Assembly (NCBI GenBank): GCA_000004695.1
Contig: CM000153.2
Coordinates: forward strand, 3,680,001-3,744,000
Direction: 5' to 3'
Source of the DNA: Dictyostelium discoideum
Taxonomy: Eukaryota
Length of the DNA: 64,000 nucleotides
Shown: piece after piece, positions 49,524-60,354 of the stretch
How positions within the stretch are numbered: position 1 is the first letter of the stretch
How the letters are laid out: the number at the start of each line of letters is the position of its first letter
Position numbers and translations under genes: made by a program
The notes under the pieces: generated by a model
The model's input: only the letters and a program-made list of their open reading frames with translations
Told to the model about the DNA's origin: nothing
The model's database searches: none

Positions 49524-49715
49524 TCAGAGTACTTTAATTCCACAAGAACGCAAACAAATACTTGATTTGACTCCGTTAACTATTGGACATTTTGCTGCAC
49601 ATTCAGTTTTAGGGTCACTTGCTGCTAAATTTTCAAAATTGTAATTTTCTTCAGCATTTCCATTTGAATGAACAATAATGATAATTAAAAAAAATAAAAA
49701 TGTTAAATTTGAAAT

Positions 49716-49762
<47 letters not shown>

Positions 49763-49766
49763 ACAA
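49524..49766 (-). CDS. Possible small secreted Cys-containing peptide (...TISNLTFLFFLIIIIVHSNGNAEENYNFENLAASDPKTECAAKCPIVNGVKSSICLRSCGIKVL). The true start is uncertain.
   Basis: The ORF has four Cys and a signal-like hydrophobic stretch. The poly-K N-terminus in the track is a poly(T)-tract artefact. Confidence 0.2.
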
Positions 49767-50679: not shown

Positions 50680-53595
50680 ATGATAGATCCGGATACAGGA
50701 TCATCAAATAATATCTCACCAACTATTAGTATATCTAGAGTTGGAATGTTACAGCAAGGTGGCGGATATGATTCAATTGGGTCATCAAATAGTATGATGA
50801 ATATTGATGATACAGCAAGTAATATAAGTGGTGTTAGTAACTTTTATATGAAATCATCATTAAAAAATCATAATAATAATAATAATAATAATAGTAATAA
50901 CAGTGAATTATCACAATCACCAAAGAAAAAATTTGGAATTTCATCACATCATCAAGGTATTCATTTTTCAAATTTAGGAGGATGGTTTTCAATGTCACAT
51001 TTACATAATACACAAAAATCATTTACAGATTTAAGTCAAAAGATATTTCATGGAAAGGGTATAAAGAAACTTAGAAATATGAAAAAGAAAAAGAGAATTA
51101 AAAAAAGTAAAGCATCTTATATTAGAAGAAGGAAACTTAGTAAATTAATGAATAGTAGAGTATCAATGATAATAATGATAGTTGCGACACTATTCCTATT
51201 ATATATTGATGATATTTTGTATACATCATTGGCACCAAATTCACCGGCCACATTTAATTCAGTATCGGTTTTAAAGGTTATTGTATTTTTTATATTTGTA
51301 ATTGATTTAATATTTCAAATCTATGTTCAAAGATTGGCATATATTTTAACATTATTCTTTCCCATTGATTTAATATCGATTGCATCATTGGTGCCAGATG
51401 TAGTTGGATACGTTTTCAGTGTCACTAGTTTATTGTATGCATTAAATTCATTATCAATATCTAGAACTGCCAGAGTTGCAAGAATGGCATCTCGGTTATC
51501 AAGAATCGCAAGAATTATAAACTTTTTCGATGTTTTTCAATGTGGTAAACGTGTGGATGATAAACCAAAGAATGAGATATCAGTATCTGTTGAACCAAGT
51601 ACAATTGGAAAGAAACTATTGGCTAAAACATCTCATAAAATTGTGGTAATGTGTTTATTGATTGTATTGATCACAACATTAACTTCACCAGCACCAGATT
51701 CAGATCCATATTTTACTTCAATCTTAGAGTTATTGGTTATTTCTGCTAATCAAAATGGTATAAACTCTCAAGCATTTACAACATCATTTAATGAAATTCA
51801 AAGTAATAAAGATACAGTTGACCTTTTATACTTAAAAGTTAATGGTATCGATGTTTATCAATCATCAATTAATACAGACGAATGGTATCCAAGTTGGATT
51901 ATTAAAAATTCATTCAATGGTTCAGATATTAATGAAATGTGGGTAAACAATCAAAAGAATGAACAATATTTAGCAGCTTTATCAATTACAATGACAACTT
52001 GTTTAATAATTATACTTTCATTTGGAACTTTATTAATTTCAAGGGATTTTCAAATTTTAGTTATAAAACCAATTGAAAGAATGATATCATTAATTAAAAA
52101 GATCTCATCAATGGAAAGAGGGTATGACAGTGATTATGACTCCGATCCAGATGATGAATATACAAATCAAACCACTGAAGATGATGGTAATTGTGGTGCA
52201 GATGATGGTGATGCTAAAAATATAAATATGAATGATTTAGAAGTTGGTGGATTTTCAAGTGCAGGTGATTCAGATTTTGAAAGTTTTGGAGAATATGGTT
52301 CAGAAGAAAATGAAACAGAAATTCTTGTAGAGGTTTTAAATGAATTGGCATATAAAAAATTATCAAATCAAAATAATGAAAGAATTCAACATGAAAATAA
52401 ACAAAAAATAGTTGATGGATTGAATTGTTTATTGGCAAATATTAAATCATTTGCACAAAGAAAACATTTTACCAGTGAACTTAAAATTTATAATAGAAGA
52501 CATAGAATTGTTAAAGAGATTTTAACTACTGAACAAACCTATTGTAATTCATTATCAACAAAGATTGAAGTTTTCATTTTACCATTACGTAGTAAATCGA
52601 TTATTTCAAATGATGATCTTTCAACTATATTTAGTAATTCTGAAGTTATTCATCAATTTAATAGTGGATTTTTAGCATTACTAGAGGAGAAAATTAATAA
52701 TTGGTCTACTAATCAATCGATTGGTGAAGTGTTTAATTATTTGGAGAATTCAGTTCAATGTTATAGTACCTATGTAAACAATTATAATAACTCAATAAAG
52801 GCATTGGAAGATTGTAAGAGAGATAATGAGAAGTTTGTAGAGTTTTTAGCGGACCAACGTGAAAAGGCATCGATAGAGTTACCAGGTTATTTAATTATGC
52901 CCGTTCAACGTATGCCACGTTATGTGATGTTATTAGAGGATTTATTAAAACATACAGCACCTCAACATTTCGATTTTGAACCAATTGATAATGCTGTTAA
53001 ATCATTAAAGAAAATAACGGTACAATTGAATGAAAGAAAGAGAGAATCAGAGAACAAACAATCGATTCAAGATATCTATATGCAATTGGTACCACCAATT
53101 CAAGACATTTTAACACCTGGAAATTGTATAGCTGCAAATTCAAAATTAAAACAAGACTCTCTTAAATTCCATTTCATCCTTTTCCAAACTGGTCTATTAA
53201 AAGTTGAAAAGAGTCATGACGAATTACATGTTAAACAATATTATCAAATTAAAGATAAACCAATCGTATTAACTGTACTCCAAGATGTACCTTCAATGAA
53301 ATTCTTTAATGCTTTTCAAATAAAGATTGAGGATGAACATGAACTATTACTCTTTGCAAAAACTGAAGAAATTCGTAATCAATGGATAAACGCTTTAACT
53401 CAATTTACAAAAGTTCAAACTCAACGTACAAAGAGTGTTTTAATGATAAATTCTCATCTTCGTAAATCAACCATTAGTCGTGGTAGTGGTTCAAATATAC
53501 TTCAAAATTCACCTTTATCAACTTCAAGATTATCTTATTCTTCAAATTCTGGTTCTCAAAGTGGTGGTAGTAGTAGTAGAAATTTAAATAAATAA
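50680..53595 (+). CDS. Voltage-sensor-like six-TM domain fused to a DH-PH RhoGEF module, 971 aa, intronless.
   Basis: A basic pre-S1 region. S1 SMIIMIVATLFLLYIDDIL. S2 VLKVIVFFIFVIDLIFQIYVQR, with an F-x-x-D charge-transfer-like motif. S3 LTLFFPIDLISIASLVP, resembling Shaker NVIDIIAIIPY. S4 LSISRTARVARMASRLSRIARIINFF, with six Arg at 3-residue spacing. Two further TM helices (HKIVVMCLLIVLITTLTS and YLAALSITMTTCLIIILSFGTLLIS) are separated by about 100 aa, with no GYG filter. Then a DH domain (RRHRIVKEILTTEQTYCNSL...LPGYLIMPVQRMPRYVMLLEDLLKHT) and a PH-like region. Confidence 0.75.
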   Translation: MIDPDTGSSNNISPTISISRVGMLQQGGGYDSIGSSNSMMNIDDTASNISGVSNFYMKSSLKNHNNNNNNNSNNSELSQSPKKKFGISSHHQGIHFSNLGGWFSMSHLHNTQKSFTDLSQKIFHGKGIKKLRNMKKKKRIKKSKASYIRRRKLSKLMNSRVSMIIMIVATLFLLYIDDILYTSLAPNSPATFNSVSVLKVIVFFIFVIDLIFQIYVQRLAYILTLFFPIDLISIASLVPDVVGYVFSVTSLLYALNSLSISRTARVARMASRLSRIARIINFFDVFQCGKRVDDKPKNEISVSVEPSTIGKKLLAKTSHKIVVMCLLIVLITTLTSPAPDSDPYFTSILELLVISANQNGINSQAFTTSFNEIQSNKDTVDLLYLKVNGIDVYQSSINTDEWYPSWIIKNSFNGSDINEMWVNNQKNEQYLAALSITMTTCLIIILSFGTLLISRDFQILVIKPIERMISLIKKISSMERGYDSDYDSDPDDEYTNQTTEDDGNCGADDGDAKNINMNDLEVGGFSSAGDSDFESFGEYGSEENETEILVEVLNELAYKKLSNQNNERIQHENKQKIVDGLNCLLANIKSFAQRKHFTSELKIYNRRHRIVKEILTTEQTYCNSLSTKIEVFILPLRSKSIISNDDLSTIFSNSEVIHQFNSGFLALLEEKINNWSTNQSIGEVFNYLENSVQCYSTYVNNYNNSIKALEDCKRDNEKFVEFLADQREKASIELPGYLIMPVQRMPRYVMLLEDLLKHTAPQHFDFEPIDNAVKSLKKITVQLNERKRESENKQSIQDIYMQLVPPIQDILTPGNCIAANSKLKQDSLKFHFILFQTGLLKVEKSHDELHVKQYYQIKDKPIVLTVLQDVPSMKFFNAFQIKIEDEHELLLFAKTEEIRNQWINALTQFTKVQTQRTKSVLMINSHLRKSTISRGSGSNILQNSPLSTSRLSYSSNSGSQSGGSSSRNLNK

Positions 53596-53660: not shown

Positions 53661-54753
53661 TTAACATTCAATTTTAAAAACTTCATATTCATCAACTTGA
53701 AAATATCTTTTACCTTTTCCTTTACTATCATAATAAGATTCAAAGAAATTCTCTTTATTTATATTACAATTATTTGAAATTGTTAAATTTTTACCCAATA
53801 TACCAAAAGTTGGACCATAATTAATGTTTGAATAAATTGATTGACTTGATGAACCTTCTTCTTTTTTTATAATTGATGGTGGTATATTTGCCAAATCAAA
53901 TAAAAATGATTTATCATCTTGAGTATATTGGGTAGACAATGTCCAATTACGACTTGCATATCCTCCAAATATACAATCCTTTGATCTAATAATTGTAATT
54001 GTGGATCCTTTAAAATCACATAATTCATGAAATCTCTTTGATGAAAAATCATTATCTGATCCCTAATTAAATATAATAAAATTAGATTTTCTTTTAATTA
54101 ATAATAATAATAATAATAATGGTAATAAAATGATTTGATTGGTCCTTACTCTATATAATAATCTTGTTTTTTTAATTTGTAATTTTGATTTTAATAATCT
54201 AATTAAATCTTTTGATAATTCAACAGATAAAATTTTTGATTGATAAAAATGATATGGATATAACAATTCTTTTAAACCTGATAAACAATAAAAATCTGCT
54301 TCAACATATAATTCATTTCTAATTTGTTCACACTCTGGAATATTTGAACAATCACCTCTTAAAAAATTTAAAATAATTCTAAAATGTGTACCATCTCTTT
54401 AAATTTATATATATTTAAAATATCAAAAAAAATATTTTAGTAATTAGATAAAATTATTTCCAAAAATTCCAAAAAAAAAGTAAAAAAATTATAAAAATTA
54501 CCTATCAATAAAATAAGTATCAGGTTTATTTGGAGTTTTGATTACATTTACATTATAATTACCAGAGAATAATATATCAAAGTAATTATTTTTTTGATTT
54601 GTTAAGGTTCCTTTTGTAGTACAAAATTTGAAACCACCTATATTTAATATTAATGGTTCATTATTTGATTGTACCTGTTGTTGAAATTGTTGTATTTGTT
54701 GTAATTGTTGTAATTGTGTATATAAATGATTTTGATTATTTTGTTGTTGTTGC

Positions 54754-54789
<36 letters not shown>

Positions 54790-54953
54790 CCATGACTATA
54801 ATATAATGTTGATAAATTTTCATTACTATTATTAAAATATGGATATAGTGAGTTTGATGAAGATCTTATTGATGAAGTATACTCATTTCCATCATCAACG
54901 GATTGTAATTTTAATGAAACTGATGAAACATCATTTGGTATAACTTGGTTCAT
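53661..54953 (-). CDS. BTB/POZ (T1/KCTD-type) plus TLDc-like domain protein. Exons: 54953..54502, 54396..54150, 54062..53661.
   Basis: BTB: LILNIGGFKFCTTKGTLTNQKNNYFDILFSG...YFIDRDGTHFRIILNFLRGDCSNIPE. C-terminal: GSDNDFSSKRFHELCDFKGSTITIIRSKDCIFGGYASRNWTLSTQYTQDDKSFLFDL (a TLDc-like motif, IFGGY..W). Donors GTAATT and GTAAGG. Phases 2/1 and 0/0 fit. Confidence 0.6.

Positions 54954-57675: not shown

Positions 57676-60354
<2,679 letters not shown>

Follow-up and report, generated by a model that had tools for sequence, protein, structure and literature searches.

Can one protein carry a change in membrane potential directly to the actin cytoskeleton? The question is raised by a gene in a stretch of 64,000 nucleotides of the Dictyostelium discoideum genome (GCA_000004695.1, contig CM000153.2, positions 3,680,001 to 3,744,000 of the forward strand; hereafter the window), located at positions 50680..53595 on the plus strand, where a preliminary description made from the letters of the DNA had read a voltage-sensor domain (VSD), two further transmembrane (TM) helices and a Dbl-homology (DH)-PH Rho guanine nucleotide exchange factor (RhoGEF). 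The open reading frame (ORF) is complete and lies in a single exon, encoding 971 amino acids from an ATG start, with the stop codon included in the coordinates. Its translation is identical to XP_637967.1 / Q54MM3 / DDB_G0285859 of D. discoideum AX4, whose RefSeq model is the same single exon, so that both the ORF check and the RefSeq entry bear out the extent first proposed for it. Public annotation of DDB_G0285859 goes no further than "hypothetical protein / DH domain-containing protein". We propose here that this protein may be an integral-membrane Rac GEF in which a six-TM sensor gates the DH-PH module by voltage, a reading that we consider about evenly poised. More tentatively, it would be a voltage-gated Rac GEF working with neither ion flux nor second messenger, and would represent the GEF branch of a largely unrecognised pan-eukaryotic superfamily, in which a shared cassette makes cyclases, phosphodiesterases (PDEs), RasGEFs, RGS proteins and RhoGEFs responsive to voltage. 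All features of the gene described below lie on the plus strand and are given in window coordinates.

That the voltage-sensor half and the RhoGEF half form one gene and one protein is supported by the RefSeq identity, by collinear orthologs, by a conserved helix bridging both halves and by transcript-like contigs. The opposite view would be that of an annotation artefact, in which two adjacent genes run in frame by chance, or in which an intron, a stop or a processing site was not recognised, so that no fused protein exists. Against it stands first the frame itself, which continues for 2,913 nt without interruption in an AT-rich genome of about 22-30% GC, where chance stops are frequent; the GC fraction is 0.25-0.31 in the coding sequence and 0.13-0.20 in the flanks. 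The same collinear architecture is moreover found in ten dictyostelid orthologs, which show 47-98% identity and span the dictyostelid groups, and likewise in a distant ortholog (P0019), full length and collinear at 31% identity (E=2e-105), in which the acidic insert described below is present, as is the ET helix. The contig of this distant ortholog (2,476 bp, 42% GC) carries only the VSD-RhoGEF ORF. The existence of this ortholog shows that the fusion predates crown dictyostelids. Three assemblies, independent of one another and 3,227-3,279 bp long, represent P0008, a Polysphondylium-like ortholog; their 5' and 3' ends nearly coincide, as those of a defined mRNA would, which makes these contigs transcript-like. 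Together with the conserved ET..L helix, which spans the junction between the membrane half and the GEF half, these observations make an artefact extremely improbable, and the fusion first noticed in D. discoideum is kept in all dictyostelid groups as well as in the distant ortholog.

The C-terminal half is a complete Dbl-family DH-PH RhoGEF, for which exchange activity is predicted. The DH domain (residues 610-784; 52507..53031) matches the Pfam family PF00621 RhoGEF with 169 bits (E=1.6e-49) over profile positions 1-180 of 180, and contains both CR1 (IVKEILTTEQTY) and CR3 (LIMPVQRMPRYVMLLEDL), the latter being the LxxPVQRxxRYxLLLxxL block on which the preliminary description had based its call of a complete DH domain. 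Residues E613, T617, E618, Q743, R744, R747, Y748, L751 and L752 of this domain are invariant in the ten orthologs. Its best relatives in the PDB are Ect2, ARHGEF4/Asef and collybistin/ARHGEF9 (E~1e-24 to 1e-26), and the alignments with collybistin/ARHGEF9 extend through the PH region (residues 607-924). The PH domain that follows (residues 820-908; 53137..53403) is placed by these alignments and by Pfam, whose PH score is 22.4 bits in D. discoideum (cutoff 25.1) and which detects the domain in 10 of 10 orthologs (best E=3.3e-6), so the PH-like region announced earlier was rightly read.

The tandem arrangement of DH and PH, together with the conserved CR1 and CR3, is likewise that of the canonical Dbl-family RhoGEFs named above. 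These canonical GEFs are, however, soluble proteins recruited via SH3, BRCT, PH or lipid, whereas DDB_G0285859 is built into the membrane through its six-TM sensor. Regarding its substrate, PMC1914345 assigns to D. discoideum Rac-type GTPases and neither Rho nor Cdc42, and since only Rac-type GTPases would be available, the predicted substrate of DDB_G0285859 is presumably a Rac.

The N-terminal half is supported as a genuine S1-S4 VSD, voltage sensing itself being a prediction. Hydropathy places TM segments at residues 161-179, 194-212, 220-255, 321-339 and 435-457. They are preceded by a Lys/Arg-rich basic juxtamembrane segment (residues 129-158; 51064..51153), recognised in the sequence and in an AlphaFold2 (AF2) helix at residues 145-157 (model residues 6-18) just before S1, in which K130, L131 and R150 are invariant in the orthologs. 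Hydropathy, the ortholog alignment and AF2 then define S1 (residues 160-183; 51157..51228), with the invariant countercharges I176-D177-D178; the alignments of orthologs and relatives define S2 (residues 189-217; 51244..51330), with the charge-transfer-centre motif F206-x-x-D209; and the ortholog alignment and AF2 define S3 (residues 226-257; 51355..51450), which includes a short S3b and the invariant D230 and P239-D240. S4 with its cytosolic extension (residues 259-293; 51454..51558), delimited by alignments and AF2, carries R262, R265, R268, R272, R275 and R278. Most of these elements had been anticipated in the preliminary description: its basic juxtamembrane segment lies at 129-155, its F-x-x-D of S2 is F206-V-I-D209, and its IDLISIASLVP of S3 is found at 229-239. 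Only S4 (SRTARVARMASRLSRIARI, 261-279) needs correction, since the six Arg are present and their spacing is 3,3,4,3,3 instead of every third position throughout. This break in register is family-wide (consensus RAGRAARxxxRxxRxxR); a one-residue break between the third and the fourth charge is unusual beside the classical Kv S4.

The homology of this half to known voltage sensors becomes visible when relatives are considered together. In Pfam scans, eight of the ten orthologs (best E=4e-6) and 53 of the 101 distant relatives introduced below (best E=4e-11) match Ion_trans (PF00520), among them P0019 with 26.8 bits and P0094 with 28.7 bits. In every relative examined, only that half of the profile which corresponds to S1-S4 is matched, up to about position 116-125 of 241. 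A profile of eight orthologs has Hv1 as its best match in the PDB (E=0.01), and a family profile of 29 sequences has Hv1 (3wkv) as its sole match (E=2.4e-4), with S1-S4 in register, R262/R265/R268 falling on R1-R3 of Hv1, and D177 on its E119. The AF2 model built from the 29-sequence alignment reaches a predicted local distance difference test score (pLDDT) of 80.1 and a predicted template modelling score (pTM) of 0.72, the 8-sequence model a pLDDT of 64. In a fold search VSD structures rank first, the best structural match being Ci-VSP, and the four-helix bundle superposes on solved VSDs.

The residues on which voltage sensing depends in other proteins are also those that the family has kept. 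I176-D177-D178, F206, D209, D230, P239-D240, R262, R265, R268, R272 and R275 are invariant in the ten orthologs. When 126 non-orthologous relatives are aligned to the hidden Markov model of the cassette, the position of D178 is acidic in 93%, that of D209 in 92%, that of D230 in 98% and that of D240 in 91%, F206 is Phe in 89% (112 of 126), and the six basic positions of S4 are, in order, Arg or Lys in 86, 91, 69, 92, 96 and 92%, the lowest value being that of R268. These voltage-sensing positions are the best-conserved columns of the cassette alignment. Such a pattern is what would be expected of a working gating-charge ladder with its charge-transfer centre, unlike that of an S1-S4 domain serving as a pure scaffold.

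Downstream of S4, an amphipathic motif (EPSTIGKKLLAKTSHK; family consensus PSxVGxxLSExTTRRVI) occupies the position where an S4-S5 linker would be and leads into TM5 (residues 303-339; 51586..51696; AF2 helix 308-335). TM5 is followed by an extracellular alpha2-beta4 domain of about 85 residues (residues 340-424; 51697..51951), modelled with a pLDDT of 81-91 as helices 342-359 and 364-375 and strands 382-387, 390-394, 407-411 and 419-423. Among the 126 relatives, no part of the cassette varies more in sequence than this ectodomain. A likeness to the TOP domain of polycystins was considered and rejected: the weak matches of PKD2L1 to TM5 and the first part of the loop (E~0.4) are noise, the topology differs, since in polycystins the domain lies in the S1-S2 loop, and a broader profile does not reproduce these matches.

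TM6 is continuous with a cytosolic helix that we name after its "PIERM" motif (residues 425-480; 51952..52119; DFQxLVIKPIERMxxLIKKIS), both forming a single AF2 helix (model residues 286-341). The PIERM helix is near-invariant in the orthologs, P464 is kept in 86 of 87 ungapped relatives, and the TM6-PIERM helix is the putative signal-transducing helix of the protein. Its Pro-x-x-x-hydrophobic pattern recalls the AS1 helix of a HAMP domain, an analogy and nothing further, since PF00672 gives no match and an insert of about 60 residues splits the two helices. This acidic low-complexity insert (residues 481-542; 52120..52305), rich in Asp, Ser, Tyr and Glu, is confined in the orthogroup alignments to the RhoGEF orthogroup, P0019 included, whereas cyclase relatives have about 16-20 residues at the same place. 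Beyond the insert comes the second conserved helix, "ET..L" (ETEILVEVLNELAYKK, residues 543-557), which together with a helical linker to the DH domain makes up residues 543-605 (52306..52494). The family profile aligns across the acidic insert to this helix (E=1e-11), of which E543, E545, I548, V550 and L553 are invariant in the orthologs.

With six TM segments and an S4, it may be asked whether the membrane half is a channel. In this view, the protein would be a chanzyme: the six-TM half would form an ion-conducting oligomer, a proposal already made for the adenylyl cyclase of Paramecium, or the VSD itself would conduct in the manner of Hv1, and the GEF would be an effector under ion flux or channel gating. 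Besides the topology, a K+ conductance reported for the purified Paramecium cyclase speaks for it (Schultz 1992, as cited in PMC12414865; PMC3283738), as does the finding that knock-down of Paramecium AC1/AC2 alters a hyperpolarisation-activated conductance (PMC10587447). That conductance of the alveolate cyclases was, however, never reproduced with recombinant protein (PMC10651576, PMC3283738), and the sequence of DDB_G0285859 does not favour a pore. Its Ion_trans homology, like that of every relative examined, stops at about position 125 of 241; TM5 and TM6 are joined by a folded, unconserved ectodomain in place of a re-entrant P-loop, and GYG/TxGxG is missing; and no G-x-G occurs in residues 283-620. 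A GxGxxG motif is found about 42 residues after TM6 in 75 of 118 relatives, a figure that counts presence or absence only. This motif, the only pore element proposed for the alveolate proteins, occurs in none of the RhoGEF orthologs and in none of the RasGEFs. As for a proton pore of the Hv1 kind, the selectivity residue D112 of Hv1 aligns with T170 in one alignment and with an insertion in the other, so that no Asp stands there and such a pore is rejected. A chanzyme is therefore improbable in our judgement, and TM5/TM6 is, by these sequence criteria, not a pore domain. The preliminary description had called the pair S5/S6-like, with a TMTT in the second helix and no filter; the motif (SITMTT in TM6) and the missing filter are confirmed, and the likeness to S5/S6 is one of topology, with no homology to a pore.

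How widespread this sensor is was seen when 1.84 billion representative sequences were searched exhaustively with HMMER for the cassette formed by the VSD, the two TM helices and the PIERM helix: 1,499 relatives reach E<=1e-3, and 437 of these E<=1e-10. The region from S1 through the PIERM helix is covered in 141 of 163 scored proteins, orthologs counted, and in almost all of the 150 top-ranking relatives. A Pfam scan of 101 non-orthologous relatives for partner domains found Guanylate_cyc in 45, RasGEF in 9, PDEase_I in 5, RGS and TPR in 4 each, and RhoGEF in a single one, the distant ortholog P0019, with EF-hand, SH3, GAF and Calx-beta occurring occasionally. The RhoGEF output is thus limited to the dictyostelid orthogroup and this distant ortholog. 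Joining of one cassette to varied signalling outputs is the pattern expected of an input module, which suggests that the combination of VSD, two TM helices and PIERM helix serves across eukaryotes as an input for G-protein and cyclic-nucleotide signalling. Named relatives include two proteins of the filasterean Pigoraptor and cyclases of Volvox, Edaphochlamys and Tetraselmis, as well as RasGEFs of D. purpureum (P0021, XP_003291660), Cavenderia fasciculata (P0029, XP_004358992) and Ceratiomyxa (P0028); P0020 is also among the amoebozoan RasGEFs.

In these amoebozoan RasGEFs the cassette lies upstream of RasGEF_N and RasGEF. The dictyostelid members carry a paralogous cassette (33% identity over residues 136-476 of DDB_G0285859) in which the ET..L motif is not detected and 3 of the 6 basic positions of S4 are kept, more being present in the Ceratiomyxa copy. 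The recent Pfam family PF26726, "Helical_RasGEFs", found in the dictyostelid RasGEFs, also has precomputed matches on the 98%-identical representative of the D. discoideum cluster, on all other orthologs and on fragments consisting of the cassette only, and because of these last matches the family must lie within the membrane cassette. Its curators therefore saw part of the region, under a family name without any tie to voltage sensing. A D. discoideum ortholog of the cassette RasGEFs is presumably encoded elsewhere in its genome.

To our knowledge, control by a VSD has been proven, in essence, for one group of enzymes only, the voltage-sensing phosphatases (VSPs). In these (Ci-VSP / TPTE) the enzyme hangs on S4 via a short linker, whereas in DDB_G0285859 S4 and the enzyme are separated by a further pair of TM helices, the ectodomain and the two conserved helices, and coupling must follow another path. 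A VSP has a PTEN-like phosphatase as its output and DDB_G0285859 a DH-PH GEF, no phosphatase domain being found in the latter by Pfam at E<=10, and beyond the generic VSD no sequence orthology between them is detected. DDB_G0285859 would thus function like a VSP, with a VSD controlling an enzyme that acts at the membrane, without being a member of the VSP family, given the lack of a phosphatase and the different coupling architecture. Hv1, in turn, is a VSD alone that conducts protons through itself; its S1-S4 are in register with those of DDB_G0285859, which has three more basic residues, two more TM helices and an enzyme, and lacks an Asp at the position of D112.

Since a class III cyclase is the usual partner of the cassette, the closest precedents are the channel/cyclase fusions of protists and the CAPE proteins of plants, and not the VSPs only. 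The alveolate fusions of a channel and an adenylyl cyclase (Paramecium AC, Plasmodium ACalpha) also have six TM segments, a classical S4 and a cytosolic signalling enzyme (PMC10651576, PMC10587447), and a GXG after their last TM segment, TMD6, has been described as a proposed pore element (PMC3283738). The cyclase-bearing relatives found in our search contain the D. discoideum cassette end to end, share the GxGxxG after TM6 with the alveolate family and in some cases include TPR; by these features they would correspond to that family. DDB_G0285859 differs from the alveolate fusions by a RhoGEF in place of the class III cyclase and by the absence of the GXG. It has the input cassette in common with them, with CAPE and with the dictyostelid RasGEFs, and belongs to none of these enzyme families. 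Hyperpolarisation stimulates the adenylyl cyclase of Paramecium (Schultz 1992 and Weber 2004, cited in PMC10651576, PMC12414865 and PMC10587447). This would be the one case in which physiology points to control of the cassette by voltage, even though the Paramecium cyclase was never reconstituted as a recombinant protein (PMC10651576).

The CAPE proteins belong to streptophytes with motile sperm. That of Anthoceros agrestis (P0111, BCL77501.1) has a complete cassette (profile 7-333, E=1.6e-19) in the order PDE (71-333), cassette (543-890) and cyclase (964-1152), its outputs therefore being a PDE and a cyclase. The countercharges of S1-S3 and the PIERM helix are kept in it, and S4 is partly degenerate. 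In the papers on CAPE, PMC11032487 among them, only "two hydrophobic segments" are described and a voltage sensor is never mentioned. In this characterised protein, the cassette may have gone unrecognised.

Several points weigh against the proposal that DDB_G0285859 is gated by voltage. For D. discoideum alone, Ion_trans reaches 19.0 bits for a cutoff of 25 (profile positions 9-121 of 241), the match is gone when the membrane fragment is scanned by itself against Pfam, and phmmer finds no match for that fragment in the PDB. As a word-indexed protein search with the same fragment gave no match either, its own protein included, we treat these fragment negatives as a limit of sensitivity. The Pfam result foreseen for such a fusion was obtained with this qualification: RhoGEF is strong, and Ion_trans, at 19 bits in D. 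discoideum, is above threshold in some orthologs and relatives. In the structural comparisons, the fold search put VSD structures first, as said above, and Foldseek on both AF2 models gave nothing significant (E at least 0.16), which we attribute to the global alignment of a model sharing only the four-helix bundle. S4 is modelled as one helix of 35 residues (259-293) with a pLDDT of about 60-69, the least confident part of the VSD; given its length and this lower confidence, the lower three charges may lie at the interface of membrane and cytosol. The 3,3,4,3,3 register means that possibly fewer than six charges cross the field. Dictyostelid RasGEF paralogs without half of the S4 charges indicate that the cassette can persist without an intact ladder, and the presence of an ectodomain suggests an extracellular cue as the real input or as a second one. 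Finally, no cyclase relative is named as alveolate, and the literature search found no paper naming DDB_G0285859.

Some of these points lead to an alternative in which voltage is not the input. The S1-S4 domain would then be structural, or sensitive to a ligand, to lipid or to mechanical force, as in TRP or TMEM266-like proteins, or else the unit of TM5, ectodomain, TM6 and PIERM helix would be a receptor for an extracellular cue, with the VSD mainly localising the GEF to the plasma membrane. The resemblance of the PIERM segment to a HAMP AS1 helix fits this account, as do the reduced S4 ladders of the RasGEF paralogs and the suggestion of the CAPE authors that the extracytosolic region may receive stimuli (PMC11032487). 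The pattern of conservation runs the other way, with the ectodomain being the least conserved element, and the gating-charge ladder and the charge-transfer centre the most conserved. S1-S4 domains that do not sense voltage typically lack both. Neither HAMP, nor Cache, nor PAS matches DDB_G0285859 in Pfam even at E<=10, and the best structural match is the bona fide voltage sensor Ci-VSP. All in all, we regard a sensor for something other than voltage as unlikely, though as a serious contender.

Returning to voltage as the input, the mechanism that we propose would start with a change in membrane potential that moves S4. This motion, a charge movement that we infer from the conserved ladder, would reach TM5 and TM6 by way of the linker helix, and would then be carried along the rigid TM6-PIERM helix and, after it, the ET helix into DH-PH. 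The exposure of the DH-PH module or its orientation to the membrane would thereby be altered, resulting in voltage-dependent Rac activation at the plasma membrane, with a direction of regulation that is likewise conjectural. Such a coupling path would resemble the electromechanical coupling of channels, from S4 through the S4-S5 linker to S5/S6, rather than that of a VSP. The protein is probably a dimer, since most relatives carry class III cyclases, which are obligate dimers whose single domain works only as a dimer.

What is new here is the pairing of a VSD with a RhoGEF and the breadth of the cassette, VSD-coupled enzymes as a kind being already known. A literature search found neither a VSD-RhoGEF nor a VSD-RasGEF described, the original catalogue of Dictyostelium RhoGEFs (Vlahou & Rivero 2006) being outside that search. 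In a 175-genome survey of Dbl proteins, transmembrane or ion-channel partner domains go unmentioned (PMC5499878), and the proteins listed in a 2024 review entitled "Voltage sensors" are limited to channels, SLC9C1, VSP and Hv1 (PMC13095418), all of which agrees with the initial impression that such a fusion had not been described before.

If the proposal is true, DDB_G0285859 would be a direct route, within one protein, from the membrane potential to the actin cytoskeleton. Its host is a classic model for chemotaxis and electrotaxis, and the primary sensor of the electric field in electrotaxis is still described as elusive (PMC4603535). As the gene is single-copy and has a single exon, in a genetically tractable amoeba, the hypothesis is directly testable. 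Voltage-regulated enzymes would moreover be a common occurrence among protists, algae and early land plants, CAPE included, and would not be restricted to VSPs. The shared cassette would also reframe the "channel-cyclase" problem of Paramecium and give the membrane region of CAPE a candidate function.

The remaining parts of the protein are its two ends. The N-terminal cytosolic region (residues 1-128; 50680..51063) is of low complexity, weakly conserved in the ortholog alignment and devoid of Pfam matches, and the Ser-rich C-terminal tail (residues 909-971; 53404..53592) contains the RTKS and SRLS motifs conserved in that alignment.

No functional link between DDB_G0285859 and the neighbouring BTB_2/TLDc and FNIP-repeat genes is apparent. 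Upstream, an ORF of 80 amino acids on the minus strand (49524-49766) that opens with 14 Lys is almost certainly translated poly-A/T in intergenic DNA of 13-18% GC and no gene. Just downstream, two ORFs on the minus strand (53661-53939 and 54498-54953) look like exons of one gene, one of them encoding a T1-type BTB_2 domain (E=3e-4) after a poly-Gln tract and the other the C-terminal part of a TLDc domain (E=1.3e-5). Further on, an ORF of 892 amino acids on the plus strand (57676-60354) consists of FNIP repeats (E=1.8e-64, in 11 stretches), of which Dictyostelium has an expanded family.

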